Below, one piece after another: positions 1 through 29,787 of a stretch of 29,787 nucleotides of DNA (position 1 is the first letter of the stretch; the number at the start of each line of letters is the position of its first letter). Source of the DNA: a virus (Duplodnaviria; Caudoviricetes); IMG/VR virus record IMGVR_UViG_3300022936_000189, positions 1 to 29,787 of that record. One strand, 5' to 3'. Both the position numbers and the translations under genes were made by a program. A model generated the notes under the pieces. The model was not told where the DNA came from, ran no database searches, and saw only the letters and a program-made list of their open reading frames with translations.

Positions 1-1764
1 TTCACTATGTGCTTTAAGATAGGTTTTTAGTTCGCGGTCGGCATTTTCAACCGCAACAGCAGCCTGTGCTTTTGCAAGGTCATTGGTAATTTTGGCGTCG
101 GCAATTTCCTTTTGCAATTTGGCATTCGCCGATTTATCTGATGCGGCAAATTCGGCTTGCGCCAATTTTCTCTTTGCCGTAGCTACCTTTTCGGCCAGTT
201 CCAGTTCGTCTTTAAGGCTTTTTGCCTTAACGCCCTGCTGCTCTATAAAGAGGTTAAGCGACAAGCTTTGCCTTTGCACCTCGTCATCCAGCGCCTGTTT
301 TGCCTTTGCCTTGCGGGCATCTTCGGCCTGCTGGCGTTTTTGCTGGGCATCATCGTGTATTTTTTGCTTTGCAGCCTCCTGGCTTTCCACCATTTTAACT
401 TCTTCGCCACTAAGGCGCATTTTTGCCACCTGTGCTTTTTGCAATGCATCAATTTCGGCTTGTGTAAAGCCCATTACCTTCATCATTTTTTCGGCGTATG
501 CCGCACCCTGTTCCTGCAGGCTGCTAAGTTCCTGGGCGGTAAGGCCCTTGCCTAAAGCCGCGTTGCGCACCGTTTGGTTATAAGCATCATCGGTAAGCTT
601 TTTACGTTGAGCCATGTTTGTGCTTTCTATAGCGGCGGCGGCGGTAAGGGCATCAAGGCGTTCCTTTTCGGATAACTTCTGGTTCTCCGACACCTTAATA
701 AGTGCTTCTGCCTGCTGCTTTGCCTTTTCGTTATTTACCTCCTGCACCGCCATTTGTGTGGCAAGTTCTTCCTGTGCTTTTTTAAGGCTTATGGTTTCTT
801 CTGCAGTCTTTTTTACCTCGGCAGTAAAATTAGTAACACCCTTTGCTGCATCATCAAACCCTAAAAAAGCAAGCCCATCGGCTATAAAGCCCATGGCTGC
901 CTCTGCTGCTTTGCCTGCCAGATCAAACCCTGCTGCAATACCGTCTATTAATATTTCGCCCAGGGGGGTTAGCAAATCCATGAGCGCATCTGTAATGACC
1001 GAGAAAGTTGTAAATATCTTTGTAATTTTATTAGCACTTTCTGTACTGTTGTTCATGGCATTTTGCACCAGGGCAAAGACCAGTACCAGTGCCGCAAGTA
1101 TAGCACCTATAGGGGTAGCCACAAAAGCAATCGACGATTTTGTCATGCCCATTATACCTTGAGACATACTCTCGAACGCGCCCTTAAGCAAAGGGCCTGT
1201 ACCGCCGGCTTCCTGTGCGCGGCTTATTAACCCTGTAAGCCCGCCGTTAAAAATATTAATGCTGTTAAAGCCTTCCTTTACCTGGTCTTTATAATCGCTC
1301 ATGGTGGTAATGAGCTTTGTGTTAGCCGACCCATTTTCTTTTAACCAGTTGTTATTTTCCTGAAGTTTCGCGTTTATTTTGCCCAACCGTTTCTCATAAT
1401 CATCATCGGTACTATTCAGGTTTTTTTTAAGTTCTATAAGCTGCCTGTTGTTGTTAAGGTAGTCATTCTCTGATTTATTAACTTCATTAACTGCATCTTT
1501 TACGGCTCTTTTTACCGATAATAATTTGCCGTCTTCTGTTGTTTGTGCTGCAATCGCTGCCGTTTGTAACGCGTAAGCCGATGTAAGATTTTTTATGGCG
1601 GTGGCGTTTGCCATAAACTGTATAGACCCTTCTTTGCCTTTTGTGGTAAGTTCTGCCTGCTTGGCATTAAGTTCGTCAATTTGCTTTTTTGAGTCTATAG
1701 CACTTTGCACTAATGCTTTAGTATCTATATCTAGCTTGCCCAATATTATTTTGTCTTTTGCCAT
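1..1764 (-). CDS. Phage tail tape measure protein (3' end runs off the window)
   Basis: Not in the ORF track. Open frame from ATG at 1764 (MAKDKIILGKLDIDTKALVQ...) to the window edge. Ala/Lys/Glu-rich helical sequence with a hydrophobic segment FVATPIGAILAALVLVFALV. TAATG coupling to the upstream ORF. Confidence 0.85.
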   Translation of the reverse strand, partial: MAKDKIILGKLDIDTKALVQSAIDSKKQIDELNAKQAELTTKGKEGSIQFMANATAIKNLTSAYALQTAAIAAQTTEDGKLLSVKRAVKDAVNEVNKSENDYLNNNRQLIELKKNLNSTDDDYEKRLGKINAKLQENNNWLKENGSANTKLITTMSDYKDQVKEGFNSINIFNGGLTGLISRAQEAGGTGPLLKGAFESMSQGIMGMTKSSIAFVATPIGAILAALVLVFALVQNAMNNSTESANKITKIFTTFSVITDALMDLLTPLGEILIDGIAAGFDLAGKAAEAAMGFIADGLAFLGFDDAAKGVTNFTAEVKKTAEETISLKKAQEELATQMAVQEVNNEKAKQQAEALIKVSENQKLSEKERLDALTAAAAIESTNMAQRKKLTDDAYNQTVRNAALGKGLTAQELSSLQEQGAAYAEKMMKVMGFTQAEIDALQKAQVAKMRLSGEEVKMVESQEAAKQKIHDDAQQKRQQAEDARKAKAKQALDDEVQRQSLSLNLFIEQQGVKAKSLKDELELAEKVATAKRKLAQAEFAASDKSANAKLQKEIADAKITNDLAKAQAAVAVENADRELKTYLKAHSE

Positions 1765-2051
1765 TAGGTTACAATCAAGGTTAAAATATTACTTTCAAGG
1801 CTTATTTTTTTATTTGTAGTACTTACACTTAGTTTAATGGTATAAGTGCCCGGTTGCGCACAGGTAACCACATATTCATAATTAGAAATTTTAGTTACCG
1901 CACCCTGCGCCGTGAGTGCAAAACTGTACACCTCCTGGTTGTACAGCGTGTTTAGCCACACGGTAACGGGCGTGTTTACAGCAACTTGTTTTTGCATAAT
2001 ACCAAAGCCAAAATCTATAGCGGGCGGTATGTTTTTAAGCTGATCTATCAT
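1764..2051 (-). CDS. Small beta-rich (Ig/PKD-like) tail-associated protein
   Basis: 95 aa, PGTYTIKLSV motif, overlaps both neighbours in the tail operon. Confidence 0.55.
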   Translation of the reverse strand: MIDQLKNIPPAIDFGFGIMQKQVAVNTPVTVWLNTLYNQEVYSFALTAQGAVTKISNYEYVVTCAQPGTYTIKLSVSTTNKKISLESNILTLIVT

Positions 2052-4306
2052 GGTATGGTAATTAAAAAGATGTTAGAATAATTAATTACAGAGCTGTTTG
2101 TATAATCGTAACTGCTTATCCTAAAGTAATGTGTGCCACTGGCTAACCGTGTAGTGGTATAGGGGCTGGATAAATTTTCAGATACTCCCGAATAGCTCAT
2201 CCAGTCAACGGCATCTATAGATTTTTCTATAACGCAGGGGTAATTATCTATAGCCCGCGTAAAGTAAATTATAGCCCTTAGCCCACCTGTTCTTTGTATA
2301 CCTGTAATAGTAAAAACAGGCGGTGCAGCAACCGGTGGCGGTGTGCTGTAGGCCACTTGTACCAGTTCGCAACTTGTAACCTTACCGGGTATGTAATTGT
2401 TTACCTTGTTTAAAATGTAATAGTTAGACAATTGCTCTATATAGTACATCTTTTTAAAATCAAGGTTGGCAATGTCAACATCGGTAAGCCATAGCTGTGC
2501 CGTGACCAGCACAGCGTTGTTAAGTATAGCTTGTAACGGTGCATAAAATCGCTCTGTTATACTTTTAAAGCTAAGGCCGCTAAAAGTTTCTCTATAGTAA
2601 CCGTTTGTAGGATTATTTAAATCGCCAAGAATATTAGATACCACATTTATAGTGCCCGATACCTGCTGCGATTTTAAAAAGTAGTAACGCTTATCTAATG
2701 GTTTATAAGTAACAGTGGGCTCGCCGGGCTGCGGGTCTTCTACCACCTCTTTTTCCCAAAGCTTGTACACATTGCTGTTTTGGCCAAGGTAGAGTGATGG
2801 CACCCGCTCCGGGCTGTATATTTTAGATTTTATAACATCGCGGGTATCGGGCAGGTTTACATTAGCAATACCTATGGCCCAGTCGTTATGCGAGCTCTCC
2901 TTATCATTATAAGTATATTTAAACCAGTTGCTCTGGGCATAAGTGCCATATATATAATTTTCGCCTGTTTTTTTACTTAATTTATGGCTCCAGTTTACAA
3001 CATCAGCTCCCTGCAATTGCTCCTGCAGCGTTAAAAACCGGTAGTTATTGCTAAACTTTTCCTTATACATGGTAAGCCCAAAACGGTGCACCACTTCATT
3101 AAGAAAATCCTTTACGGCAAAATCTGAAAGTACTATACTAAAATCTACACTCTCGGCATCTAAACGTATAAGCTCTATAGTAAGTTCATCGGCATACCAG
3201 TCTTCATTAAGCTCATAACTATCGGTACCCTGCCCGCCTATAATACCGCAGATACTATCAAAAGCATTAAGCTGAAAGGGGTTAGACGTAAACTCAAAAT
3301 CTTCGCCATATATTAAATAAGGCTGCTCGTTAAACACGTTTATAATATTGTTGCCCGCCTGATAAGCATGAAGGTTGTCGCAGTTTTTACCAAATTTTAT
3401 AAAACTGTCTTTATGAATGCCCGAATTGCCATCGCGGTGCCCAAAAAGCTTGCCCTTTATTTTAAGCTTGTATGATGCCGATGCCAGTACTTTTAAGTGA
3501 ATGCCGCCGTTATTGCTAAGCCATTGCGACTGGTACTGCTCTGTAGTCATGAACCTGCAATAGTATATCTTTCGTGAAAATATACCATTGCCGCTGCTTT
3601 GTATAAAATGGTAATCGCTGCATTTAAAAAGTGGCACATCGTTAACCTCGCTGCGCTCCTGCCCCTTAGGGAACGTCATGTAGAGCTGTTTAAAATCGGG
3701 CGAATTAAATATAGATCCTGTAGGCTGCACGTTGTTATTGTATTTTTCGAAGATCTTTTTCCAAAGCCACGACACACTCACAGATGGCACTAAATAATCT
3801 ATGTTTACCCGGTTATTACCGGTGCCAAGCGGGGCATTGTTACCATTATAATCGGCAATGATGTAGCGGTACGGCAGGGTAGCAGCCCAGGAACCCTTTA
3901 CCCCCTGCACCGTTTTGTTGTGTGTAAGTTCTTCCAGGCCTATATCGTTCAGCATCTTGTTCTCTATAACCTTATAGAGTTCTATAATGCCATCGTAAAC
4001 GGCAACATCATAATTGTCGCCACCATCTGTAACCACAGCCCAGCCTTTATAAACAAAGCATTCGCCCGAAGCACTATAAAGTGAACACTCATTTTTTTGA
4101 TAGGGTATTGCCGATTTGTTACCCACGAGGGTTAAAAACTGCATAATGCGGATATTGTTTGCCGTTTTAGGCAGGCTAAATTTGTTCGTGTAACTGGCCT
4201 GCCGGTTATCGAGGCTGTTAAGGTCGTTTACCTGCCGGGTTTGGGCAATAACGGTACCGGCATCAACATCTGTAAGTTGCCCGTTAATGTATAATAGTAG
4301 TGCCAA
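2048..4306 (-). CDS. Tail tip/hub-like minor tail protein with C-terminal FN3-like domain
   Basis: 752 aa, TTG start. N-terminal SYTNKFSLPKTANN is of the type seen in Bacteroidota siphophage tail proteins. Pro-rich linker, then an FN3-like end (IEKSIDAVDW...GTHYFRI). Confidence 0.7.
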   Translation of the reverse strand: MALLLYINGQLTDVDAGTVIAQTRQVNDLNSLDNRQASYTNKFSLPKTANNIRIMQFLTLVGNKSAIPYQKNECSLYSASGECFVYKGWAVVTDGGDNYDVAVYDGIIELYKVIENKMLNDIGLEELTHNKTVQGVKGSWAATLPYRYIIADYNGNNAPLGTGNNRVNIDYLVPSVSVSWLWKKIFEKYNNNVQPTGSIFNSPDFKQLYMTFPKGQERSEVNDVPLFKCSDYHFIQSSGNGIFSRKIYYCRFMTTEQYQSQWLSNNGGIHLKVLASASYKLKIKGKLFGHRDGNSGIHKDSFIKFGKNCDNLHAYQAGNNIINVFNEQPYLIYGEDFEFTSNPFQLNAFDSICGIIGGQGTDSYELNEDWYADELTIELIRLDAESVDFSIVLSDFAVKDFLNEVVHRFGLTMYKEKFSNNYRFLTLQEQLQGADVVNWSHKLSKKTGENYIYGTYAQSNWFKYTYNDKESSHNDWAIGIANVNLPDTRDVIKSKIYSPERVPSLYLGQNSNVYKLWEKEVVEDPQPGEPTVTYKPLDKRYYFLKSQQVSGTINVVSNILGDLNNPTNGYYRETFSGLSFKSITERFYAPLQAILNNAVLVTAQLWLTDVDIANLDFKKMYYIEQLSNYYILNKVNNYIPGKVTSCELVQVAYSTPPPVAAPPVFTITGIQRTGGLRAIIYFTRAIDNYPCVIEKSIDAVDWMSYSGVSENLSSPYTTTRLASGTHYFRISSYDYTNSSVINYSNIFLITIP

Positions 4307-4832: not shown

Positions 4833-4909
4833 AATCTAAAATCTCACTTCTAACATCTATAATCTCACATCTATCATCTATCATCTCACATCTATCATCT
4901 ATCATCTAC
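4833..4909. repeat. Heptamer tandem repeat (CATCTAT-like, about 11 units)
   Basis: aatctaa aatctca cttctaa catctat aatctca catctat catctat catctca catctat catctat catctac, abutting a stop codon. Confidence 0.85.
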
Positions 4910-6063
4910 TAAAGAATCTGCGTAAACCTCACCGGCAGCTCAATATCAAAAGTAAAATTAGTAAGCGGCTGGCGTGGATTTTTAATGCGTACCCCTGTGG
5001 TTTTAAGCACCACCTCTACCCAGTCGTTATAGCTATTACGGGCGTAGGGCTGACCTGTAAAGAGGTAAATTTTTGGCGAATCAAGAATCCCCTCTACAAT
5101 GCGGCGTTCCTCTTCAGTAAGCAGTTCGGCAACAATTTTTAAAGTATCCTGACTCTCCTTCCCCATCTGTATCGTTCGCCCAAAACTATCTTCGGGATTG
5201 TCGTTATCGCTGTCCAGTTCGCCCAGTTGCTTTGTGTTGCGGTCTATACTGTAGGTATCTTCAAACAGCCAGTAGCTGTAGCCGCCCATGGCGTTAAGCC
5301 ACTTAAGGTACACGCCGGGTTTGTATGGCACCTTATTAAGGGATATAAAAACATCCTCTTCAGACGGTTCATCTGTAGCCAAAATGCGCAGGCTGTTGTG
5401 CCCGTTAGATAGTGGCAATACATCTTCCAGCGTTTCATCATCATCGCCATTGCTAAACACCAGCCTGAAAACCGGGTTTGCCACAGTAAACTGCTGCGTG
5501 AGCAAATTAGTCTCATTGCTTACCCTGAACGGTGTTGCAGGCGCATAGACCGAAATATCGTAGGGGTAGCCCTGCCAGTAGTTTAAATACCAGGCATTCG
5601 CCGAAGCTTTTGCAAACGGGCTTAATACATAAGTTCCTAACGTGCTGAGTGGCGTGTAGCTGCCGGGTTGTACCGCTCCCGCAATCCAGGTTAGGGTGTG
5701 GGTAACATCATTGGTACTATCATCTGTAAACGTGATTTCTATATTTACGTTAAGCTGTAAGAGTGTGCCGGGCGTGGCATTATATACAAAAGTATCGGGG
5801 TTTGTACGGTTAAGTTCCGGCTGCAATGTGTCCTGAAAATTACGTGTGTTTATAAGTGCGGTAACATAGGGCTTAAAGTTGAAAAAGAACGTGCCGTCGG
5901 GCGCAGGATACAGCATAATGTTAAGCGCGGTAGTATCATTTCGATTTGTTATGGTGCAAAATTTTGCCGCCACAGTGCTATCCGAATAAAACCTAAGCAC
6001 ATCGTTGTTATAGGCCATACGTAGTTTTGTTGCTTCTATGGGCTTAGAGAAAATAATACTCAT
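4909..6063 (-). CDS. Minor tail protein (distal-tail-like)
   Basis: 384 aa with YLKWLNAMGGYSYWLF and ILDSPKIYL motifs, in tail operon context. Confidence 0.6.
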   Translation of the reverse strand: MSIIFSKPIEATKLRMAYNNDVLRFYSDSTVAAKFCTITNRNDTTALNIMLYPAPDGTFFFNFKPYVTALINTRNFQDTLQPELNRTNPDTFVYNATPGTLLQLNVNIEITFTDDSTNDVTHTLTWIAGAVQPGSYTPLSTLGTYVLSPFAKASANAWYLNYWQGYPYDISVYAPATPFRVSNETNLLTQQFTVANPVFRLVFSNGDDDETLEDVLPLSNGHNSLRILATDEPSEEDVFISLNKVPYKPGVYLKWLNAMGGYSYWLFEDTYSIDRNTKQLGELDSDNDNPEDSFGRTIQMGKESQDTLKIVAELLTEEERRIVEGILDSPKIYLFTGQPYARNSYNDWVEVVLKTTGVRIKNPRQPLTNFTFDIELPVRFTQIL

Positions 6064-6515
6064 AAGGCAATTTGTTTTAAGTAATCAGAAATCTGGGTAG
6101 TAAAATTGTTCAGGTACACTTCGCCCACCTTATCCAGTATTTCCTGAATTCGCTGTGGCGTAACCACGCTGTCCGTTACATTAGGCGTGCCTGCTTTGGG
6201 CTGCCAGCCTTCCCGCCCTATTTTGCGGGCAATTAAAAAGGCAAGACTGCTTACGGTCATGTTCTTTTGCAGCCTCGTGGCAATACCTTTTTGTTGTATC
6301 CATTGCTCTATAGCTTCGCTGGGCGGCGGGGTTCCCGGGGCACGGCCGTTTATATAATCGGCAGCGGTAATGCTGTAGCCGTGGGGTGTGGCTTTAACCA
6401 TAACCGTATCTGCCCAGTTGCCGCTTACCGCCTGCCCGCTGGCTTCATACGCCGCAATAATATCTGCCCTAAGCAGTTCAAACTCGGCTGCCAAAACTTG
6501 GTTGGCATCACTCAT
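6060..6515 (-). CDS. Neck/tail-completion protein (HK97 gp10-like)
   Basis: GRAPGTPPPSEAIEQWIQQKGI...LAFLIARKIGREG pattern. Confidence 0.6.
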   Translation of the reverse strand: MSDANQVLAAEFELLRADIIAAYEASGQAVSGNWADTVMVKATPHGYSITAADYINGRAPGTPPPSEAIEQWIQQKGIATRLQKNMTVSSLAFLIARKIGREGWQPKAGTPNVTDSVVTPQRIQEILDKVGEVYLNNFTTQISDYLKQIAL

Positions 6516-6957
6516 AATTCACAGGAAATTTAATGCGGTAACTGCACAACAGGCCATCCATATTAGCATCGAGCGCATCGGTAACGTCTATATTGTCCCA
6601 CTGCAATACTTCGGCATCAAGGCACGCGAGTGTATTACCAATATCCTGAAAAACATCAAGCAGCGGGGCAATGTTTACGGCATATTTAGACGTTTCCTCA
6701 TTACCCCTTTCGGCAAAATACTGCTGGTCAAAGTCGGCGTGCTTTACCAAAAAGAATTTCCCCTCATAGGTAGCGGCCGTAATTTTTGTACCCGACGTGT
6801 TGTATTCGCTCTTACGGTTGGTAAACTCATGCAGCAGGAAAATTTTGTCAGGCTCGAGTGTGCCATCCAGGAGGTTAAGCGCGGCTTTCTTGCCGTAATG
6901 ATATGCCAGGTTTTTGCTAAGCGCAATGTCCTGGAGAATGCGTACTATGTCTTTCAT
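6508..6957 (-). CDS. Putative tail terminator/head-tail joining protein
   Basis: 149 aa acidic protein overlapping the neck gene. Call rests on size and position only. Confidence 0.45.
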   Translation of the reverse strand: MKDIVRILQDIALSKNLAYHYGKKAALNLLDGTLEPDKIFLLHEFTNRKSEYNTSGTKITAATYEGKFFLVKHADFDQQYFAERGNEETSKYAVNIAPLLDVFQDIGNTLACLDAEVLQWDNIDVTDALDANMDGLLCSYRIKFPVNYE

Positions 6958-7004
6958 TTGAGAATGTGGATTTGGTTATTTGTTTTTTGTTGATGTGATT
7001 TAAA

Positions 7005-7510
7005 AAGGAACGCGGATTTTTTTGTTGCTTTCTTCACGCGTGAGTGTAGCTGGTTCCCCTCTTGAGAGGGGTTAGGGGTGTGTTATTTATAAGAAATATT
7101 ATAAGGGAACACGGATGGTCACTGCTGCTGCGCAATCGCGGATGAACGCGGATTTTTTTGTTGCTTTCTTCACGCGTGAGTGTAGCTGGTTCCCCTCTTG
7201 AGAGGGGTTAGGGGTGTGTTGTTTATGTGTTTTACCTTTTTCACATCCCCTTCTTTACGTCGTCGTCATTGCGAGGCACGAAGCAATCTCATCATTTAAA
7301 GATTGCCGATACTTTTCTCATTTTATAAAGATAACACACCCCTAACCCCTCTCAAGAGGGGAACAAGCCCCCAACACCGGAAACTTCCTGAATAAAAAGA
7401 TTGCTTCGTGCCTCGCAATGACAGTACGTGAAGAAAAGTTAACAAAAGAAATATCCTAAAAGAAATCCGCGCTAATCCGCGCTTTCAATCCGCGTCATCC
7501 GCGTTCCCTT
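7005..7510. repeat. Nested REP-like cluster with an internal direct duplication of about 77 bp
   Basis: GAACGCGGATTTTTT...GAGTGTAGCTGGTTCCCCTCTTGAGAGGGGTTAGGGGTGTGTT at about 7008-7084 and 7144-7220. GTCATTGCGAGGCACGAAGCAATCT at about 7265 is inverted at about 7399-7423. ATCCGCG units at 7465-7510. Confidence 0.9.
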
Positions 7511-7549
7511 TCTGTAAACTGCGAACAAATAACCATCAACCGACAACGA

Positions 7550-8089
7550 TCAACTGTTCCTCGAAAGTTTCCCATACTCTGCCTCTACCTCGTTTTGGGT
7601 TTTAGTTTGGGCAAGGAGGTTAAAGATCTCGCTATACGGTTTCCTGCCCAGGTCGAAAGGGTATTGCCCAAACAGCTTGCCCAGTTGCAGTAGCGGTAGC
7701 GTGTCGCTGTAGGGTTTCAGTTTATCGGCACCGGCCATTTCCCACAGGTGGGTATCGGTATTTTGCGTGACGAGCAGCTTGTTTTCGGTAGCAATTATGC
7801 GTTCAAATTCGGCTATCATAAACTTCCGCGCCGAAAAATACTCTATAACCGTTGCCCTCCAAAAGTCTTTTTCGGGCACTTCAAAGCAAATCTCAAACAG
7901 TTGCTGTATGCCCTGCCAGCTGATTACTTTTGGCAACTGCCGTATGCAGTATTTTACATTGGCATAAGGCATTTGGTTTACGTTCATTTGCCTTTTGGCG
8001 AAGTGGTTCTTTGGGTTTAAGTGGGTTAGTATATCGTAAGGCGCAGGGTCTTTAAGGGCGGTGTATTGTTTTAGGGTGATGTTTTTCAT
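7550..8089 (-). CDS. Phage protein, possibly a tail assembly chaperone
   Basis: 179 aa helical protein directly downstream of terL. Function is a guess. Confidence 0.45.
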   Translation of the reverse strand: MKNITLKQYTALKDPAPYDILTHLNPKNHFAKRQMNVNQMPYANVKYCIRQLPKVISWQGIQQLFEICFEVPEKDFWRATVIEYFSARKFMIAEFERIIATENKLLVTQNTDTHLWEMAGADKLKPYSDTLPLLQLGKLFGQYPFDLGRKPYSEIFNLLAQTKTQNEVEAEYGKLSRNS

Positions 8090-8104: not shown

Positions 8105-8391
8105 AACGTGGATTATGCAGATGCTGCGCAGTCGCGGATATTAACTGATTTTATAAGAAGAGTAAGAGATTCTGAGTGAAGTTCTTCCCCTCTTGAGAGG
8201 GGTTAGGGGTGTGTTTACCAATGAATTTAAAGTAGATTTAAAAGACACACCCCCAGCCCCTCTCAAGAGGGGAGCCAGCCCCCAACGCTGGATAGAACCG
8301 TGAAGAAAGGAACTTATAAAAATCAGTGTAAATCCGCGTTCCATCCCTAAAGGGTCAAGGCAAAATTCCCCCTTTGGGGTTAGGGGGCTCC
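8105..8391. repeat. REP-like cluster
   Basis: Inverted pair of CCCCTCTTGAGAGGGG units (about 8187-8214 and 8246-8278) bracketed by inverted CGCGGAT/ATCCGCG units. Confidence 0.8.
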
Positions 8392-9711
8392 CACCCTGAT
8401 TTTAGTCTGATACGTTTTTCGCAATGCAAACCAGTACCGCATCATGATGCTGTCCCACTCATCGGGGCTGCGGCCTATAAGCTCCTTAATGCGGTCTTTT
8501 GGGATGATGCCCTGCCTGCCGTCTTTATCAATATCCTTAAGTTTAACCTGCTCCATCTCTTCGGCGGTTGTTTGCTTTACGGCATCATTATCGCAAACTT
8601 CGCCTGCAAGGCGATTGGTAATCATCTCTGCCATTTTTATAGAACACTGACTCTTAAGGTTGTCGTAGTTGGGTTTAATGTACGTGTTGCCCTCGAGCAT
8701 TTCGAGCGGTGACGAGTTGTTTACAAAACCCTTGCATTTAAGAAAGTCTACCACGCCGCCACCCACACCATCTTCGTCGGCCACAATGTTAGAAAGGGCA
8801 ATGCCGTAGCGGGTTTGCAAAATTTTAGCACGTCCCACTACCTCATCGAGTCCGCTCTTGGCAATGCTTTCCCGCGCGATGCACACCCACCCGTGCCAAA
8901 TGCGAAACACCGTTTTGTCGCGGCCTTTACGGGCAACATCAATCGTCATGAATTTGAGTCCGCTTGGTGTAAGGTGCGAGGGGTTAAAATAATCGGCAAT
9001 GCTGTCGTTGTCCATTAGCGTTGCAGGGTCGTCGTCATACTCCCAGTTGCCGTAGTACAGGCGTTCGCGGCTGTTTTTATCGAGCCGTAAAAGCGACTGT
9101 AAATAACTGGGGTGCAGGTACGGGTTATCTGTAGGCAGACTCTGAATGAACCTCCTGTGCAACGGCAGCACACCATCACGCTGTGGTTTGTAGAACTCTT
9201 TATATGCCCAGTTCTTGGCGGGGTTGCAGGAACCCAGCATCTTGGGGATAAGGCCATATTGGGTTAGTTTATACCGAATACGGCTCTTTACAATTTGCCA
9301 GGCATGATAGGCCACCTGGTTGCATTCATCTATAAAAGCGCCGCTGATTTCGAGCGAGCCAAGGCTGTCAAAGTTAGGGTCGGATGGATACGAAAACAGG
9401 TCTTTGAGCAGTATCTGGCTGCCGTTGTTAAACTGAATTACATGCTCTACAGATTTGTACTTGAACTGGTTGCCCAACCGTAGCAGCGTTGCCTGTTCAA
9501 AAAAGGTGTTGAGCGTAGTTTCCTTAAGCGTTTTTAATTTAGACCGACCCATAAGCCAGCGCGTGCCCGGATATTTTTGGCACATTTCGATTAGCCAAAG
9601 GCAGCCAAGGGCACTCTTGCCACCACCGGCAGCACCGCCGTAGAGCACCTCTTCGGTTACCGCATCTTTTAAGTAAAAGACGGCATGCTCCTGTTTAACC
9701 AGCAGTTTCAT
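8380..9711 (-). CDS. terL: Terminase large subunit
   Basis: Walker A YGGAAGGGKS, Walker B AFIDE, coupling motif GSCNP, nuclease IDVARKGRD and RSPDEWD. Confidence 0.95.
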   Translation of the reverse strand: MKLLVKQEHAVFYLKDAVTEEVLYGGAAGGGKSALGCLWLIEMCQKYPGTRWLMGRSKLKTLKETTLNTFFEQATLLRLGNQFKYKSVEHVIQFNNGSQILLKDLFSYPSDPNFDSLGSLEISGAFIDECNQVAYHAWQIVKSRIRYKLTQYGLIPKMLGSCNPAKNWAYKEFYKPQRDGVLPLHRRFIQSLPTDNPYLHPSYLQSLLRLDKNSRERLYYGNWEYDDDPATLMDNDSIADYFNPSHLTPSGLKFMTIDVARKGRDKTVFRIWHGWVCIARESIAKSGLDEVVGRAKILQTRYGIALSNIVADEDGVGGGVVDFLKCKGFVNNSSPLEMLEGNTYIKPNYDNLKSQCSIKMAEMITNRLAGEVCDNDAVKQTTAEEMEQVKLKDIDKDGRQGIIPKDRIKELIGRSPDEWDSIMMRYWFALRKTYQTKIRVGAP

Positions 9712-13792: not shown

Positions 13793-13941
13793 GATTTTAA
13801 AAGTTGAAAGTTTGTAATGTTATCAAGTCTTAAAGTTGTAAGTGGTTGTTGGTTGTCGGTTAATGGTTGATGGTTGATAGCCGTAAGGCCTGAGTGATGT
13901 TCCCGGCAACGGACAACCGGCAACCAGCAACCAATACCTTT

Positions 13942-14190: not shown

Positions 14191-14321
14191 CTTTAAATAA
14201 GTTTAAAAGTTTATAAAGTTGTCAAGTCTTAAAGTTTGTTGTTGGTTGATGGTTATTGGTTGTTGGTTTCCTGGAAAGAGTGAAGTTGCCAGCAACAAAC
14301 AACCACTAACCAACAACCATA

Positions 14322-17850: not shown

Positions 17851-17852
17851 AC

Positions 17853-21382: not shown

Positions 21383-21988
21383 ATGCCAACAGCATTTGAT
21401 TGTACAGGACATTTAACAGCAGACATTTTATTTGATTGCGCCAATGCGCCCACAGGTGGTATAGAACAAAACGTATTGCTTATTAATAAAGACGACATTG
21501 ATGTTTCTGCCACCACCCTAAGCGCAGACAGCAGGCTTCAGGTAACGCAAATACAGCTTAAACCGGGCAAAACAGGCTATAAGCTTACGGGTGTTAAGCA
21601 AAGTAACGGCAAGGCGTGGGAACTGGTTAAAAAAGAAAATGCACCCGACAAATTTAAGCACACCTTTAGCGGTGTGATCTTTAACCCCAGCCTTGCCAAT
21701 AAAAAACAAGCTGATAACCTTAGCAAAGGCGGCAAGTATGTGGTGGTTATAGAGCAGGTGTGGAAAGGTGCAGCCAATGCAGATGCTTTTGAGGTACTGG
21801 GTTACCACTCCGGCCTGGAGCTTACAACCATGACCAACAGCTCTAAGGAGAATGACAACATGATTATGTTCGAACTCGCATCTGCCGATGGTTTTGAGGA
21901 AACCACCATGCCAAAAACCTACTTTAAGGAAGCCGAAGCATACGGAATAAGGAAAGCGCTGTTCGACAATAATTTTATTGAGGCATAA
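21383..21988 (+). CDS. Major tail tube protein (probable)
   Basis: 201 aa; DCANAPTGGIE N-terminus and FEVLGYHSGLEL pattern of Bacteroidota phage tube proteins. Confidence 0.65.
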   Translation: MPTAFDCTGHLTADILFDCANAPTGGIEQNVLLINKDDIDVSATTLSADSRLQVTQIQLKPGKTGYKLTGVKQSNGKAWELVKKENAPDKFKHTFSGVIFNPSLANKKQADNLSKGGKYVVVIEQVWKGAANADAFEVLGYHSGLELTTMTNSSKENDNMIMFELASADGFEETTMPKTYFKEAEAYGIRKALFDNNFIEA

Positions 21989-21997
21989 CCTCCCCTT

Positions 21998-22486
21998 ATG
22001 GATTTTACCACTATGGATATTGCCACCCTTACCCAGTCTGTTACTGGTAAGGGTGTGCCATACCTGGAGCTGTTTCTTAAAGAATACACCTCCCTTTTTG
22101 GCGGATCGGTTAACCCTTCCTGCCCTAAATGCTTAACGGCTTATTTAACTAACTATCAAAACCATTTTAATGCTATGCAAAATACCTGCGCTTACAAACT
22201 ACACAAAAAATACGAAAACATACCGTTGCAATTTGGCTCGCCCATATTAGTAAACAACAGCAACATTACTAATGAATATGCCGAAATACTGTTGCAGCAG
22301 CCCGATGGCATAAGGTTTTTTGCAGAGATACCATCGGCAGGCGATCCGTTTGACGGTTCGTTTATGATTGCAGATGATAGTGTAACATACCCGGAAGCCG
22401 AAGAGCCATTGGCCGATTTAGCTGCTGATGTACCGCTTGAAGGAAGCGATGATATTGATATTTACAATACCGGACAACCCGAATGA
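21998..22486 (+). CDS. Hypothetical phage protein with CxxC motif and acidic tail
   Basis: NPSCPKC; 4-bp overlap with the portal gene. Confidence 0.6.
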   Translation: MDFTTMDIATLTQSVTGKGVPYLELFLKEYTSLFGGSVNPSCPKCLTAYLTNYQNHFNAMQNTCAYKLHKKYENIPLQFGSPILVNNSNITNEYAEILLQQPDGIRFFAEIPSAGDPFDGSFMIADDSVTYPEAEEPLADLAADVPLEGSDDIDIYNTGQPE

Positions 22487-23637
22487 GAACTCTTTTAATA
22501 GACGTATGGAAAAGGCTCACACCCTGGAGTAAAAGTGCCGACGTATATGCCAATGATACCGATAACACCTACCCGGAACGTATGGACAGGCTGGTAAACA
22601 ACAGCGTTACGGCAAAGAGTGCAGCAGCTATAATGGTGCAATACCTCATCGGGAAAGGGTATGGCACGGATGCCGACAGCATTATCATCAACAAAGAAAA
22701 AAACCTGAAACTGATAGATTTTGCCGATGATGTAGCCGACGACCTTGTTAAACAACGCGGCGTGTTTATTCACATAAACTGGAATGCCCTGTACCAAATT
22801 GCCGATTGCAGCGTGGTGCCTTATGAGTGGTGCCGAATAGGCAAAAAAGACAGCAACGATTATGCCGGCAAGATAGCCATAAGCAAAGAATGGCTTAAGC
22901 CAAAGCGCAGCGAAATAGAGTTGGTAGATGTTTACAATCCGCGTAAAGCGGTCATAGACGCACAGGTAGAAAAGGCAGGCGGGTGGGAACATTACAAAGG
23001 GCAGATACTCTTTGTAAACATGGACACGAAGCTTATTTACCCGCTGTCGCGCATCGACTCGGTTTCCGAAGATTGCGATAGCGAGGCGCAGGCATCCATT
23101 TACAAAAACAAGTTGTTGCGTAAAGGCTTTTTTGGCAATACGCTGGTAGTTACACGACCACTTGTGGGCGAAGGCCTCGAACCCGGCAGCACTGCACTAA
23201 CAGAGGCAGAGAGTGAACGGGAGCGTTTTCAGCAGGCCATAAAAGACAGCCTTGGCGCACAAAATACCGGTGGCGTGCTGTGCCTTGAAATGGACTTTGC
23301 AGGAGAAAAACTGGACGATGCCATATTGATAAAACAGATAGAAAGCAAGATAGACGACAAGCTATTTAATTATACCGAAACCAGCGTACGCGAAAATATA
23401 CTTGTGGCTTTTAATAACCTGCCGGCAGGACTGGTAAAAACAAACGATTCGTCGCTGTTTGGCAATTCGGGCGAGGCCATCCGCGAAATGAAACGCACAT
23501 ATTGGGAAAACACAAGCAAGGAGCGGAGTTTACTTACAGCGGTTATCAATCAATTATTGCAGCGGTCGCAAGACTACGCGAGCCTTATTGTACAACCCCT
23601 AAAACTGATAGACGATGCAACCCCTGATAACCCGTAG
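22483..23637 (+). CDS. Portal protein
   Basis: DNTYPE, NSVTA, VFIHINWN and LGAQNTGG motifs; 384 aa. Confidence 0.8.
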   Translation: MRTLLIDVWKRLTPWSKSADVYANDTDNTYPERMDRLVNNSVTAKSAAAIMVQYLIGKGYGTDADSIIINKEKNLKLIDFADDVADDLVKQRGVFIHINWNALYQIADCSVVPYEWCRIGKKDSNDYAGKIAISKEWLKPKRSEIELVDVYNPRKAVIDAQVEKAGGWEHYKGQILFVNMDTKLIYPLSRIDSVSEDCDSEAQASIYKNKLLRKGFFGNTLVVTRPLVGEGLEPGSTALTEAESERERFQQAIKDSLGAQNTGGVLCLEMDFAGEKLDDAILIKQIESKIDDKLFNYTETSVRENILVAFNNLPAGLVKTNDSSLFGNSGEAIREMKRTYWENTSKERSLLTAVINQLLQRSQDYASLIVQPLKLIDDATPDNP

Positions 23638-24109
23638 CGATATTGCCCGCTACAAGCAAATATCTAAAACGCCATATGACGACAAGCTGCACGAGCAAAT
23701 ACTCGATGCGCAGCTGCTGGACCTTCAGCCGCTTATTGGCGAAAGCTTTTTCAACAAAATACTTTCTGCCCCCGTAGATTACGCCGACCTATTAGAAGGC
23801 TGCATTTATGAACACGACGGCATAAGCTATACTAACTATGGCCTTAGCATGGTGCTTACCTATTTTGCTTATGCACGCTACATGATGTTTTCATCGGCAA
23901 TAGACACACCTTTCTCTGTAGTCGAAAAACTAAGCGACAACAGCAGGCCGGTAGAGGTATCGGCTAAAAAAACCTTGTATACACTAAACCGTGAAGCAGC
24001 CGTGCAGGTGTGGGAGAATGTAAAAAATTACCTCGTTCGCACGGCACACCCCGATTTTAAAACCTGCAAAACCAAACAGGGAGGATTTCGATTTAAAAAA
24101 ATAGGCTAA
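23615..24109 (+). CDS. Head-tail adaptor (DUF6712-like)
   Basis: DAQLLDLQPLIGE and LTYFAYARY motifs; follows the portal gene. Confidence 0.65.
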   Translation: MQPLITRSDIARYKQISKTPYDDKLHEQILDAQLLDLQPLIGESFFNKILSAPVDYADLLEGCIYEHDGISYTNYGLSMVLTYFAYARYMMFSSAIDTPFSVVEKLSDNSRPVEVSAKKTLYTLNREAAVQVWENVKNYLVRTAHPDFKTCKTKQGGFRFKKIG

Positions 24110-26607
24110 TGAATATTATATCAACTGTAAACGACAAGCGCTTTTCTATAAACAACATACAGTACCTAAAAAATTATGTTACAGAGGTACACGGCAATAA
24201 AATAGAGCTATTTAATTGTTACGAACGTCACGATGTACTGTTAGAGTTAACGCATTACAGCAACTTTATGGTAGACGGGGTGCGGTACCCTAACGTGACA
24301 GATTTGCAGGCGGCACTGCTGCCGGTACTATATTCGCGCAATAATTTGGGTGGGGACAGCCCCGATATCGACCAGGACAATATAGATGTTGTGCATTACA
24401 TGAGGAGCTCATCGGCTTTGCCGGAAAGTATACTGTCACAAATAAACAGCCTTGACATGTATACGCTCGATGATAAGCAGAGCCTGTGGTTTATAGTATC
24501 TGTACCGGGTGCTCCTGGCTTAAACAACAGGATTACAACCCCCCATGTTTATAAATACAAAATGATTAACTATGGTAAGGGTACTTACGGGCAGGGCGCA
24601 TTTGAGTTAACCATAACCGATATAGAACTGGTTAATGCCGCACAGGCTACCGTGCAGGACATTAAAGCGCAACCTAACACGCAGATTATTAATTATGGAG
24701 CCATTACAACAACCATTTTATCGTGGGTAGTAGTACATAACCCTCCTTTTACTATACCGTCACCTGCCGACGCTTACACTATTTTTACAGGAACTATAAA
24801 TGGTACTGCAATAACCTACTTATGGGTAGGCACAGGTGGTAGTAACGGCTCAGGCGGCAGGCTAACATCATCATCAGACTTTTTAGCAATCCCTGAAATA
24901 GTAGTTGCCACAAATCAGGATAATATAGACATAAAAAAAACCATTTCTTTACAAGGCAGATTCGACAGCCTAACGATAATCAACACTATTAACAGCCTGC
25001 CGGCTTATACTGTAAACGACAACCAGTCGTTGTGGTTTGTGGTTAGGGAACTTACGTTTATAGATGACGGCAACTTAAATGTACCCCGCCCCCCAACAAA
25101 TACTAATCCGTTACTGCTAAAATATAAAATGCTTAACAAAGGCAAAGGTATTTATGGCTCCGGGCAAACACAGTTACGATCGACGGATATTGAATTGGTT
25201 TATAGCAATGAAGCCTCTTTAAACGACCTTGAAGTTGCCGTTGAGACCGATATTGTTTTATTTACACTTACCGAAGGACAAACCATAAGCCAGTGGCTTA
25301 ATGCTCAAAACCCAGCAATAGTAATACAACCCCAGCAAGAAGGCTACACCATTTTTAAAAGCACGGGTACCAATAACCAGTCGTATTTATGGATAGGCAA
25401 CGCAGGCACTTATGGTAGTGGCAGGACACAATCGGTATCAGATAATTTTCAGTTGCTTAATGAGGCAATCACCCCCGTAAATCAGGACAACATAGACATT
25501 AAAAAGACGTTTACCATACCTAATAATTATACAACTGCAAGTATACTTTCGGCAATAAATAATTTAAGAGCTTACGAAATAAAAGATACACAGTCGGTAT
25601 GGTTTATTGGCCGTCAGCAAACTACACTTCAAAGACCGGATGGCCCCGGACCCGAAGTGCCTATACGATTTATTGGCCCGTTAATATTAAAGTACAAGAT
25701 GGTTAATAAGGGCAAAGGGTGGTATGGCAGCGGGCAAACCCAATTAACATCGGCTAATATAGAGTTGATTTACACTAACGAGGCTACACTGGAGGATGTG
25801 GAGTCTGGTGCAGAAACCCAGATAATACAGTTTAGCCTGTCGGAAGACCAAACAGTAAGTGAGTGGTTAAATAGCCAAAACCCCGATGTAACATTACAGA
25901 CGCAGGAAGAAGGCTATACCATTTTTAAAGGAACAGTAAATAACGAAGAAATATCGTATTTATGGATAGGCACAGCAGGAAGATATGGCACCGGGAGATT
26001 GCAAAGTACCAATACCGATTTTCAGCAGCTTAATGATGTTGCTCCGGCACCATTTATGCCCTCTTATGCGCAGGTACTGGGGCAAAACAACAGTACTTTA
26101 CAATATGCTGTGCATGTTCACGAAGATACCGATGCTACAACGGCTTATGGTGCCAATATAGTACATAGAAGTAGAAATGCGCAGTCGGTTACTATAGATT
26201 TTGCAGAGCCAACAGCTACTGTTAGCTATATTGTGCCTGCAAAACAGGTTAATGATGTTTTTGCAATGGTTAGCGATGTACATAAACCCGTTAAGACAGT
26301 TATAACAGAAACACCAGGGTTTGAAAATGGAATTTATACCCTCGCGGCAGAAGATAAGGATAAATGGTTGTTGTTTAAAATCCCTGTAGATTTTACCATT
26401 AAAATTCCCGATGCTGTATTTACAACAAATACTCTTATAGAGGGAGAGACTGCAGATATTGGTCAGGCTACATTTACAGGCGGAAGTGTAATATTAAATT
26501 ATGGTGCTTCGGAAAACCCAAAAACAGCAGAAAAGAATAGTGTGTTTGGGTTGAAATTCAGGTCGGTTACAGAGGTTTCTTTATATGGTAAACTCGAATT
26601 AAGATAA
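24109..26607 (+). CDS. Virion appendage/fibre-like protein with three tandem domains of about 185 aa
   Basis: QDNID...QS(L/V)WF...KYKM.N.GKG.YG...YTIF...YLW(V/I)G repeated three times. Confidence 0.7.
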   Translation: MNIISTVNDKRFSINNIQYLKNYVTEVHGNKIELFNCYERHDVLLELTHYSNFMVDGVRYPNVTDLQAALLPVLYSRNNLGGDSPDIDQDNIDVVHYMRSSSALPESILSQINSLDMYTLDDKQSLWFIVSVPGAPGLNNRITTPHVYKYKMINYGKGTYGQGAFELTITDIELVNAAQATVQDIKAQPNTQIINYGAITTTILSWVVVHNPPFTIPSPADAYTIFTGTINGTAITYLWVGTGGSNGSGGRLTSSSDFLAIPEIVVATNQDNIDIKKTISLQGRFDSLTIINTINSLPAYTVNDNQSLWFVVRELTFIDDGNLNVPRPPTNTNPLLLKYKMLNKGKGIYGSGQTQLRSTDIELVYSNEASLNDLEVAVETDIVLFTLTEGQTISQWLNAQNPAIVIQPQQEGYTIFKSTGTNNQSYLWIGNAGTYGSGRTQSVSDNFQLLNEAITPVNQDNIDIKKTFTIPNNYTTASILSAINNLRAYEIKDTQSVWFIGRQQTTLQRPDGPGPEVPIRFIGPLILKYKMVNKGKGWYGSGQTQLTSANIELIYTNEATLEDVESGAETQIIQFSLSEDQTVSEWLNSQNPDVTLQTQEEGYTIFKGTVNNEEISYLWIGTAGRYGTGRLQSTNTDFQQLNDVAPAPFMPSYAQVLGQNNSTLQYAVHVHEDTDATTAYGANIVHRSRNAQSVTIDFAEPTATVSYIVPAKQVNDVFAMVSDVHKPVKTVITETPGFENGIYTLAAEDKDKWLLFKIPVDFTIKIPDAVFTTNTLIEGETADIGQATFTGGSVILNYGASENPKTAEKNSVFGLKFRSVTEVSLYGKLELR

Positions 26608-26609
26608 CT

Positions 26610-28154
26610 ATGGGAGCAATTTTAGCAAGCAGGATGAGGCAACGGACACTGCCTTTTATATCCAGATGGAAAACCGATAATATAAGTGTTGGCAGCAGTA
26701 CCGAAAACCAAATTAAACTCCCATTATACGATGGTGGTATTTACGATTTTAAGGTTGATTGGGGAGATGAAACAACATCAAGAATTACGTCGTACAATCA
26801 GGCAGATACAGTACATGATTATACAACGCCCGGAACCTATACTGTAACGATAAAAGGCACGCTTATCGGGTTTAGATTTAACAATCAGGGAGACAGGCTT
26901 AAGTTGTTAAGCGTACAACAATGGGGATGTTTACTAATAGGAAACTTAGGACGTGTTTTTTACGGTTGTACTAATTTAAAGCTTAGTGATGTAAGTGATA
27001 CTCTGAATTTAAAAGGTGTTACCGATATAAATTACATGTTTGCCCAATGTAGTTCTTTAGATATAGTTAATTTAATATCAGATTGGGATGTTAGCACAAT
27101 TACTACTATGAGCGCCATGTTTTGGCAGTGTACAGCTTTTAATAGTCCGCTTAATGGATGGAACACGGGTAAAGTAACAGTTATGACCAGTATGTTTAGT
27201 AATGCTTCATCCTTCAATCAAAACATAAACGATTGGGATGTTAGTAAAGTGAAAAGTATGTTAGCCATGTTTAGCGGTGCTTCTTCTTTCAATAAGCCCC
27301 TAAATAACTGGAATACAAGCAATGTAACCGGAACGAATAGTATGTTTAGTAACGCCATTTCCTTCAATCAGCCGCTAAATAATTGGGATGTCAGTAGCGT
27401 TATTAATATGCAATCTATGTTTTATGTAACATCCTCTTTTAACCAACCATTAAACAATTGGAATACAAGCAATGTTACAGACATGGCACAAATGTTTGGC
27501 CGCGCAACTGCCTTTAACCAACCTTTAAATAATTGGGATACCAGCAAAGTTACTAATATGACCAATATGTTTCGCCTTGCTGCTGGCCTTTCAGGAGTGT
27601 TTAATCAGGATATATCTTCATGGGATACCGGCAATGTAACAAACATGTTTTACATGTTCGCTTATAACCCGGTTTTTAACCAGCCATTAAATAACTGGAA
27701 TGTATCTAAAGTAACAATTATGGATTCGATATTCAGGCAAAATTTTGCTTTTAATCAGCCCTTAGATAAGTGGGACACCAAAAATGTAGTAAATATGGAT
27801 GGTATGTTTATTGATGCGAAGGCCTTTAACCATCCCATTAATTCATGGAGCCTAAGTAACGTTACCTCTATGATCGCAATGTTTCAAAACGCTACGGCAT
27901 TCAATCAAAATATAGCGGCCTGGGATGTTTCAAAAGTTAACAATTTTATAAATTTCATGTCGGGAAAAACATTTTCTGATTATTCTTCTGAAAACTATAA
28001 TGCACTACTTAACAGCTGGGCTGCACAAAATGTTGTTACTAACAAGTCTATTAATTTTGGGACTATAAAATATACTTCGCAGGGACTATCCGGCCGTAAT
28101 TTTTTAACTTCTACAAAAAGGTGGAATATTACTGATGGAGGATTGTCTTTATAA
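26610..28154 (+). CDS. BspA/DUF285-type leucine-rich repeat protein with N-terminal PKD-like domain
   Basis: VDWGD...HDYTTPGTYTVTIKG, then about a dozen 25-aa repeats FNQPLNNW(D/N)(T/V)S.VT.M..MF. Confidence 0.9.
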   Translation: MGAILASRMRQRTLPFISRWKTDNISVGSSTENQIKLPLYDGGIYDFKVDWGDETTSRITSYNQADTVHDYTTPGTYTVTIKGTLIGFRFNNQGDRLKLLSVQQWGCLLIGNLGRVFYGCTNLKLSDVSDTLNLKGVTDINYMFAQCSSLDIVNLISDWDVSTITTMSAMFWQCTAFNSPLNGWNTGKVTVMTSMFSNASSFNQNINDWDVSKVKSMLAMFSGASSFNKPLNNWNTSNVTGTNSMFSNAISFNQPLNNWDVSSVINMQSMFYVTSSFNQPLNNWNTSNVTDMAQMFGRATAFNQPLNNWDTSKVTNMTNMFRLAAGLSGVFNQDISSWDTGNVTNMFYMFAYNPVFNQPLNNWNVSKVTIMDSIFRQNFAFNQPLDKWDTKNVVNMDGMFIDAKAFNHPINSWSLSNVTSMIAMFQNATAFNQNIAAWDVSKVNNFINFMSGKTFSDYSSENYNALLNSWAAQNVVTNKSINFGTIKYTSQGLSGRNFLTSTKRWNITDGGLSL

Positions 28155-28175
28155 TATTCGCATCTCACTGAATAT

Positions 28176-28628
28176 TTGCAAATAGTCTTAAACGTGAAAC
28201 TTATTCAATCATTTAGTATATCGCTACTCGCATTTTTTATGCCTGTACATGGAATACTTATTGCAGTAGGTGCTGCCATAAGTTTAGACACCTTAATGGG
28301 CATTTACAAATCGGTTAGAACAGAACAACCTTTAATAAGCCGCCGTTTTGCCGATGTTATCCTTAAAATGTTTGTTTATGAACTGGTAATACTCATGCTT
28401 TTTGGCATTGACTATTTTTTACTATCAGAGTTTTTTTGCGTGTGGTTCTCTGTAAACTACTTTTTTACCAAAGCTTGTGCTATGGTACTCATTTTTACCG
28501 AGATGGTTTCTATCAAAGAAAATATAGAACAGGCGCATGGCATTAATATCCTAAAGCAATTACGCAATGCCCTTAAGCGTACTAAAGACTTGAAAGATGA
28601 TGTATTTGACCTGACTAAAAATATCTGA
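28176..28628 (+). CDS. Holin
   Basis: About three hydrophobic segments, LDTLMGIYKS and EMVSIKENI motifs, upstream of the endolysin. Start uncertain. Confidence 0.85.
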   Translation: MQIVLNVKLIQSFSISLLAFFMPVHGILIAVGAAISLDTLMGIYKSVRTEQPLISRRFADVILKMFVYELVILMLFGIDYFLLSEFFCVWFSVNYFFTKACAMVLIFTEMVSIKENIEQAHGINILKQLRNALKRTKDLKDDVFDLTKNI

Positions 28629-29158
28629 TGGATGCCTTAACCTTAACCCGGATAAATTGCCTGCACCCTGCCGTAAGGCAGGAGGTGCTTACTGCTTACA
28701 AACACATTAATAACAATCTTTTTGGTAAAAAAATCAGGCTTAGGTTTGCGCATACACTGCGAACATTTAATGAGCAGGGTGCACTTTATGCCATTGGGAG
28801 AACCCAGCCCGGTAAAAAAGTAACCAATGCTAAAGCAGGGCAGTCCATCCACAATTACGGATTAGCTTTTGATATCGTAATCCTTATTGATAAAAATGGC
28901 GACGGTACATTTGAAATTGCTTCCTGGAATACTACAAGCGATGACGACAAGGATGGCATGCCCGACTGGATGGAAGTTGTTATTTACCTTAAAAAACTGG
29001 GCTGGGCATGGGGCGGCGACTGGAAATCTTTTCCTGATTATCCTCATTTCGAGAAAACCTTTGGAAACAACTGGAAATCGCTACAGGTAAAGTATAATGC
29101 AGGAGATGTATTTACCAACGTTATAGATGGCATAACCTTTAAATGGGTAAATTTATGA
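28628..29158 (+). CDS. Endolysin, M15-family (L-Ala-D-Glu type) peptidase
   Basis: LRTFNEQ, SIHNYGLAFD, WGGDW, DYPHFE zinc-peptidase motifs. Confidence 0.92.
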   Translation: MDALTLTRINCLHPAVRQEVLTAYKHINNNLFGKKIRLRFAHTLRTFNEQGALYAIGRTQPGKKVTNAKAGQSIHNYGLAFDIVILIDKNGDGTFEIASWNTTSDDDKDGMPDWMEVVIYLKKLGWAWGGDWKSFPDYPHFEKTFGNNWKSLQVKYNAGDVFTNVIDGITFKWVNL

Positions 29159-29787
29159 AAAACCATACCTGTACTGCCATTGTAATTGTGCTGATACTAA
29201 TGCTGTTTGTAACGGTGCAACGCTGTCACTCAAATCTACAAAATGCCACTAAAAATTATAATGCCTTAACCGATAGTATAACCTATTTTAAAAATCGCGA
29301 CGGTACACAATTGGCAAGTATCAAAACGCTTAATGTAGATAAAGCGCAATTACAGCAAACTCTGTTAGCAAAAGATAAACAACTGGCCAGTTTTGCTAAA
29401 CAATTTAGCCAGATTAAAACTGTTATAAAATATAGCCAGCTCATAAAATACGATACTATTACTATAACCTATAAAGATATAGTGCCATGTGCTTTTAACA
29501 GGTTTGGCAAAATAAACACTAAGTGGTACCGGTTTAATTACACCACAAACAATAAAGGATTTGCTATAGATAGTTTAACTATAAACACCCAGGCAACTGT
29601 AATAACGGGTTTTAAGCGTTCGTGGTTTTTAGGTAAAGAAACCTTAATTACCACTGTTACTAATACTAACCCAAATATAGCTACAACCTCTCTTACATCG
29701 GCTCAGGTTGTTGTACCTGTGCCGTGGTATAAAAGGTGGTATGTATGGTTAGGTGCAGGTATTGTGGGTGGGATGCTAACTCAATAA
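29155..29787 (+). CDS. Spanin-like lysis protein (candidate unimolecular spanin; DUF6549-like)
   Basis: ATG at 29155 overlaps the endolysin stop. Hydrophobic signal ending VQRC, coiled coil, beta region, C-terminal WYKRWYVWLGAGIVGGML anchor. Confidence 0.6.
   Translation: MKNHTCTAIVIVLILMLFVTVQRCHSNLQNATKNYNALTDSITYFKNRDGTQLASIKTLNVDKAQLQQTLLAKDKQLASFAKQFSQIKTVIKYSQLIKYDTITITYKDIVPCAFNRFGKINTKWYRFNYTTNNKGFAIDSLTINTQATVITGFKRSWFLGKETLITTVTNTNPNIATTSLTSAQVVVPVPWYKRWYVWLGAGIVGGMLTQ

Follow-up and report, generated by a model that had tools for sequence, protein, structure and literature searches.

A domesticated, immobile prophage of Flavobacterium that may serve its host as a lateral-transduction particle

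The 29,787-nt virus record IMGVR_UViG_3300022936_000189 (here called the window; a trimmed record that holds no further genome) carries tailed-phage genes belonging to an element of one Flavobacterium subclade, and its nearest host relative is Flavobacterium rivuli (capsid, 99%). The evidence identifies the element as a prophage that has become domesticated and immobile and is inherited vertically: neither an integrase nor attachment (att) repeats were found, gene trees follow rpoB, ratios of nonsynonymous to synonymous substitution (dN/dS) are low, and one operator and one late promoter are conserved. It is real and is not an ordinary prophage but a new form of phage particle kept by its host, in a phylum for which the reviews consulted name no characterized gene transfer agent (GTA). 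On the basis of sequence, we suggest, at a probability of roughly 45%, that this old temperate-phage genome, kept vertically under purifying selection, may be the host's locked-in lateral-transduction particle.

Immobility, distribution, and vertical descent

No integrase was visible in the window, as an initial annotation made from the sequence alone had stated, and tblastn with three integrases of mobile relatives gave no match in any element locus. A Pfam scan of unlabeled open reading frames (ORFs) in or beside the elements (103 of the 117 listed, the other 14 being already annotated or plainly housekeeping) returned tyrosine or serine recombinases or transposases in 0/103, and none of the 150 PF00589 matches listed, from 186 across 28 genomes, lay inside an element. 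The same searches detected the control prophage; neither integrase nor excisionase was found in the elements, excisionases of less than 200 amino acids (aa) falling outside the scan. No att repeats above shuffle level were found in 16 copies at the recO site (longest, ≤14 bp), and the longest repeats in six tRNA-side copies were ≤15 bp; at the copy in metagenome-assembled genome (MAG) G409 the left flank ends with the contig, making that test partial. As a positive control, the F. rivuli prophage gave 49-bp tRNA-Phe repeats at both ends. In related mobile prophages a tyrosine integrase stands directly past the spanin gene, in the position occupied by recO in the element. One further match, to PF10136 ("site-specific recombinase"), was disregarded as an integrase: it lies past porZ in F. 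akiainvivens, in a lone gene on the host side to which a transporter family matches as well. The search of the flanks for an integrase with attL and attR, which the initial annotation had proposed, hence found neither, and the immobility of the element is borne out.

Capsid searching of a species-level genome set (one genome per species) returned 26 loci matching at 76 to 99%, with F. rivuli nearest. Of 401 evenly sampled Flavobacterium genomes, 18 gave a capsid match of some kind and 11 gave one of at least 78%; ten of these 11 rank among the top 15 genomes by dinB similarity, and rpoB places the eleventh in the same clade. The remaining five of those 15 comprise three genomes with a sibling element, one with a remnant, and one in which nothing was found. 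A family-wide sample gave a capsid match in 3/401 genomes, F. rivuli itself among them. The element is typical of one Flavobacterium subclade and is without a close match elsewhere in these samples. Its spanin end adjoins recO in 18 genomes, with a distance of at most 80 bp in 15, and the neighbors of an empty recO site are the genes that flank the left end of the element in F. cerinum and its relatives. Synteny across Flavobacterium, another check that had been proposed, is therefore seen on the recO side in those 18 genomes, though it is not invariant, and does not extend to the position of dinB.

Gene trees of the element (FastTree, Shimodaira-Hasegawa-like support) were built without L028, L029, L032, and L036, which are near-duplicates of G002, G003, G160, and G001, and without the short loci L030, L009, and L024; the congruence counts are given without G073, G356, and G380. 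The head tree shared 9/22 splits with rpoB (random mean, 0.18) and held 8/9 strong splits, the early-gene tree held 6/8 strong splits with zero strong conflicts, and the packaging tree held 4/6; the Mantel test gave p = 0.001 for each of the three. Divergence at 4-fold sites was 0.54 for the element compared with 0.42 for rpoB and 0.62 to 0.65 for recO and porZ, and the G+C content at third codon positions (GC3) of the element tracks that of the host (rho = 0.77, n = 25). Values of dN/dS (up to 13 pairs) were 0.03 to 0.08 for terL, 0.01 to 0.15 for capsid, 0.02 to 0.06 for portal, and 0.02 to 0.09 for cI, rising to about 0.4 for the tail-tip, tape measure, and spanin genes. The long residence and purifying selection proposed at the outset are corroborated, and the trees agree with the host tree apart from some packaging conflicts.

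The host-type repetitive extragenic palindromic and heptamer repeats noted previously in the larger intergenic gaps were also recovered, with the heptamer arrays confirmed. The palindrome CCCCTCT-N2-7-AGAGGGG occurs in 14 copies in the window (0 expected) and is a host repeat, with 88 copies in F. rivuli, 65 in F. subsaxonicum, and 0 in two mobile relatives. Its density is about 0.5 per kb at 4496-21283, compared with about 0.02 per kb in the F. rivuli draft genome.

Regulation, packaging, and possible function

The CI-type repressor (14786..15538, plus strand) combines a helix-turn-helix with an S24-like domain and has invariant residues A109-G110, S148, and K198, which we take to be S24 features. 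Phage repressors usually diversify fast; repressor identity here is at least 73% across 23 genomes. A conserved operator palindrome, GTG(T/G)AATATTCCAC, lies at 14716..14729 ahead of a second copy within cI (14937-14950), and among five genomes it is found only in the element in four, with one extra site in the fifth. The possibility that this cI is the host LexA was ruled out, as the operator is nearly confined to the element in those genomes. TAnnTTTG is the Bacteroidetes promoter box, and two such boxes face each other at 14686-14730, in the interval that separates cI from the first early gene, an arrangement that suggests a convergent-promoter switch. The late-promoter motif ACTG(C/A)A-N-TTCAG...CCG-TAnnTTTG occurs in repeated copies upstream of the protease gene (17805..18384, plus strand) and is present in 37/39 element rows; the whole unit recurs several times across 17300-18384, together with heptamer arrays, and two copies are also present in several relatives. 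A phage-derived SOS repressor of Bacteroidetes is described in the excerpted text of PMC8565304 as having an operator in front of dinB and further repair genes; in contrast, no element operator was found ahead of dinB in the five genomes scanned.

Packaging is represented by terL (8380..9711, minus strand; Terminase_3/PBSX-type, PF04466, with TIGR01547 below cutoff) and terS (9695..10216, minus strand; phrog_309), whose product has an N-terminal helix-turn-helix for which Pfam matches are mostly below cutoff. This region aligned in 20/20 element TerS proteins. Selection on the portal and terminase genes implies DNA packaging, and in an element that does not excise the DNA packed would have to be chromosomal. 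The small terminases of known GTAs lack a DNA-binding domain, as far as the excerpts of PMC11841831 go, and because the TerS of the element, unlike these, keeps its helix-turn-helix, a packaging start at the locus is favored over random packaging by a GTA or a PBSX-like killer.

In the mechanism that we propose, DNA damage would lead to self-cleavage of CI, as its invariant A-G, Ser, and Lys residues suggest, and thereby release the early promoter that points leftward, after which a late activator would act on the conserved promoter to express the genes from the protease onward. TerS, through its helix-turn-helix, would direct headful packaging in situ, starting at or near terS and running outward, so that, without excision, each filled head would contain late genes and adjoining chromosome instead of a whole phage. 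After lysis, relatives would receive this DNA by injection from the tailed particles, and homologous recombination would follow. Where the DUF1376/DUF6633 pair survives, in-place replication would amplify the region first, and in the lineage of the window the inversion described below would direct packaging leftward, away from dinB. Two conserved 80-aa genes past the tape measure gene (L053:14186-14674), present in the element and in mobile relatives and without a known family, are candidates for the late activator, as is the 118-aa first early gene.

A close functional parallel, in the excerpted text of PMC8575938, is lateral transduction by excision-defective int/xis mutants of P22 and ES18, which are likewise integrated and repressor controlled, have a TerS with a DNA-binding domain, and do not excise; the P22 int/xis mutants show higher lateral transduction. 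Those are laboratory mutants of mobile phages, whereas the element is natural, clade-wide, and selected and has often lost its initiator. A bolder version, on which we place less confidence than on the proposal itself, is that Bacteroidota would here have their first gene-transfer particle maintained by a host: a prophage that is locked in by nature and does lateral transduction only, intermediate between a temperate phage and a GTA, and re-recruited several times (at recO, at tRNA-His, at tRNA-Ser, and, with another head-tail module, at tRNA-Phe), each time via integrase loss and particle retention.

Several observations weigh against a maintained lateral-transduction particle. No pac motif was found in terS, and the recognition helix of TerS varies, which fits relaxed specificity equally well. 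The DUF1376/DUF6633 initiator pair is missing in 12/26 genomes, though in-place replication belongs to known lateral transduction, and the GC3 gradient downstream into recO and porZ was not seen. (A GC3 peak at terS/terL was rejected as a recombination signal, as mobile relatives show it too.) The packaging tree is in three strong conflicts with rpoB, and monophyly of the element TerL is weak (0.41). The variable locus that had been named as counterevidence is partly what we found: recO is the site in 18 genomes, but the beibuense group and three MAGs have other sites (tRNA-His is nearby in the beibuense group and one MAG, tRNA-Ser is the site in another MAG, and recO is empty there), and some species show partial or complete loss. 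RHBU_24 (L008) and F. coralii (L015) lack the terminase-to-tape-measure block and portal, G205 (L119/L164) retains cI and lysis genes only, terL and clp are split in F. akiainvivens, and nothing of the element was found in G105. Further, each species is represented by a single genome, and the 26 genomes were found via the capsid itself.

A true GTA, packing near-random chromosomal fragments without a pac site, seems unlikely, even if an immobile, vertical element under purifying selection, with a dispensable initiator pair, a drifting TerS recognition helix next to a C-terminal part conserved at 80 to 92%, and GC3 above that of flanking genes in 18/19 genomes, has much of the expected appearance. 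GTAs are typically biased toward cheap amino acids, and the amino acid usage of the element is no cheaper than that of mobile relatives (carbon per residue, 4.90 to 4.95 versus 4.86 to 4.93). RcGTA and BaGTA, as presented in excerpts of PMC11841831 and PMC12946183, are domesticated head-tail clusters with vertical descent and purifying selection as well, and BaGTA is paired with a phage-derived run-off origin (PMC12946183), to which DUF1376/DUF6633 might be comparable. In contrast to these agents, to which no sequence link is shown, the element has its own phage-type CI/operator switch and close mobile relatives that are still extant, and its TerS retains the helix-turn-helix, failing the published GTA trait (PMC11841831, in part). 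This last point speaks against classing it as a GTA.

PBSX of Bacillus subtilis is a fixed defective prophage with its own repressor, a PBSX-type TerL, and head, tail, and lysis genes but no integrase, and the element has the same outline. A PBSX-like killer, whose DNA-filled heads and tails kill competing strains without useful gene transfer, is a slightly weaker candidate than a GTA; the fibre-like genes after the portal gene vary strongly between species, as such a role might suggest, but portal and terminase, which a killer does not need, are constrained like capsid. The host of PBSX belongs to another phylum, similarity is distant only, and the tail tube of the element is predicted to be non-contractile: its model is of the siphophage type, and family searches recognized no sheath. 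If the particle does kill, it would be a new PBSX-like weapon in environmental flavobacteria. A tailocin was ruled out, head, portal, and terminase genes all being present and constrained.

Less probable still is retention for immunity, programmed lysis, or defense cargo, with the particle genes decaying slowly while helper phages, or recombination with these, sustain them. The survival of cI and lysis genes in the most reduced copies (G205, RHBU_24), the cargo slots with HipA, AbiJ, AbiH, AbiZ, Panacea, and restriction-modification genes, and the two swapped types of DUF1376 N terminus among close strains would all suit such a role. However, dN/dS of about 0.05 for capsid, portal, and TerL at a near-saturated synonymous distance is not attainable by drift, cargo differs between species, and the mobile relatives are 64 to 72% alike in capsid and, except for L044, without the late-promoter motif. 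Finally, an ordinary active prophage with its integrase outside the trimmed window, just past the spanin gene as in mobile relatives, is highly improbable, since in F. rivuli recO lies 8 bp past the spanin gene, no integrase or att was found at either end, and the element contains host genes and an inverted left arm.

Mobile relatives, sibling elements, and published systems

A complete 39.7-kb temperate phage in G820 (L296, L297), with terminal repeats and an integrase, has a TerL 83% and a cI 55% like those of the element and about 23 early ORFs compared with five in the window, and it is the mobile genome that best shows which genes the element has lost. An intact-looking temperate prophage of the same family, with an integrase and 49-bp att repeats, is present in F. 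rivuli itself (G001:C2:482864-516164; L060-L062) and could be a helper, or a confounder of induction tests. These two and G818 share gene order and protein families with the element (capsid, 64 to 69%; TerL, 59 to 83%) but still encode an integrase, have a long early region, and are without the host repeat.

Integrase-less siblings occupy three further (tRNA) sites within the clade. At tRNA-Phe, the site of the integrase-bearing prophage in F. rivuli, G073 (C2:326215-356987) and G356 (C1:1632823-1661173) have such an element and an empty recO site; it combines the cI, SSB-like (single-stranded DNA-binding), and TerL families of the element with an XkdF-type protease and a different capsid and portal (head-tail module), and most of its genes are 84 to 98% conserved between the two genomes. 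A third copy of the XkdF-type sibling is found at G380:C22:32805-59432. In G080 an integrase-less copy at tRNA-Ser has a repressor 89% like that of a mobile relative. Reduced copies (L008, L015, L119/L164) keep cI and lysis genes, and two of them also keep protease and capsid, without terminase or portal.

Immobile, decayed, and still-mobile forms coexist, with cultured type strains, so that the step from phage to host-kept particle is directly testable; a further implication is that host-kept particle clusters get filed as viruses in viral databases. We found no description of the element in a largely open-access literature on GTAs and domesticated prophages of Flavobacterium and Bacteroidota, although the prophage tables of PMC13626063 may list these loci. 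GTA reviews, in the excerpts consulted, list characterized GTAs only outside Bacteroidota and describe new ones as hard to tell from decayed prophages. The orthologous prophage beside sod in Sphingomonadales is similarly an ancient phage cluster at a locus shared by many species, but it is alphaproteobacterial and unrelated as far as tested (PMC5381585).

Arm layout, dinB, and gene content of the window

The initial annotation described two outward-pointing arms wrapped around dinB, and in the window dinB (16076..17164, minus strand; a host gene of 362 aa), together with cI, does lie between them. As an organizing feature of the element, dinB did not hold up. Among species loci with at least 9 kb upstream of capsid, it is inside the element in 1/20, the F. 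rivuli lineage, and absent ahead of the protease gene in 19/20; in F. subsaxonicum it lies outside, about 8 kb past the right end, and in F. akiainvivens and one MAG about 4 kb past cI. With no operator copy upstream either, dinB as a core or regulated gene was ruled out, and its presence is likely incidental. The usual order is colinear: cI, early genes, terS, terL, neck, tail, tape measure, protease, capsid, tube, portal, fibre, and lysis. The F. rivuli type strain is colinear too but has several host genes, dinB last, between tape measure and protease, and relative to it the cI-to-tape-measure block is inverted in the window and three other records. An assembly artifact was ruled out, because a contig of run X2 bridges cI and dinB (15278-16276) and the three other records share the order. 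Capture of the neighboring dinB by local translocation and, in the lineage of the window, a single later inversion of the arm from cI to tape measure would account for the layout. The right arm carries a conserved promoter of its own, which likely makes the split tolerable.

ORF and family searches confirmed the open packaging, head, tail, tape measure, and lysis genes and their tight junctions, with overlap or almost no gap between neighbors and repeats in the larger gaps, as well as an early region of only five genes. In the minus-strand left arm these five genes are followed by terS, terL, and the neck/tail genes, with tape measure last; its neck and tail-tip labels are based on position and conservation only. 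The early region comprises a 118-aa first gene and two small SSB-like genes of 82 aa each (13544..14678, minus strand), of which only the second has a family match, and the primosomal/replication-initiator-like pair DUF6633 and DUF1376 (12158..13544, minus strand; present in 14/26 genomes). Four conserved genes of 384, 151, 149, and 179 aa (4909..8089, minus strand) are probable neck/tail genes, a 752-aa protein (2048..4306, minus strand), kept in the element and mobile relatives and without a family match, is probably of the tail-tip/baseplate type, and a conserved 95-aa gene (1764..2051, minus strand) is assigned to the tail region from its position. The tape measure gene (1..1764, minus strand) is cut by the window end to its 5' part; the protein has 965 aa in the F. 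rivuli type strain, and the full-length orthologue matches phrog_3336.

The plus-strand right arm runs protease, capsid, predicted tail tube, portal, fibre-like genes, holin, endolysin, and spanin. Family searches identified a Clp-type prohead protease (18490..19512, plus strand). The major capsid protein (19512..20570, plus strand) matches phrog_38780, labeled "unknown," and is called from its position and a distant homologue annotated XkdG/major capsid in Bacteroides phage BS-TP3, where gene order is identical; its structure model was unusable (predicted local distance difference test [pLDDT], 35). The predicted tail tube protein (21383..21988, plus strand) modeled well (pLDDT, 94) as the siphophage type, the best Foldseek matches being tail tubes at E values of about 0.01 only; PDB sequence searches gave no matches. 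A 162-aa gene, portal (22483..23637; phrog_11226), and DUF6712, likely a head-tail adaptor, span 21998..24109 (plus strand). They are followed by a variable 832-aa fibre-like protein and a DUF285/PARCEL-repeat protein (24109..28154, plus strand), likely receptor binding, and by holin, M15 endolysin, and spanin (28176..29787, plus strand), with recO 8 bp past the spanin stop in the F. rivuli type strain. At 95% likeness, three of four sequencing runs left 21520-29787 nearly uncovered though the rest was covered, and no contig spans that stretch; this may reflect strain alleles and was not used as evidence.

The N-terminal half of DUF1376 occurs as two unrelated types swapped among close strains, and a host palindrome lies in frame within DUF1376 at 12938-12958. 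An insert overlooked by the initial annotation, a low-GC HipA-like kinase with its partner (10261..11930, minus strand), occupies a variable slot that is not part of the core; this and equivalent slots hold a HipA pair, AbiJ, AbiH, AbiZ, Panacea, restriction-modification, and Old-like genes, and the HipA pair of the window is also present in F. suzhouense and one MAG.

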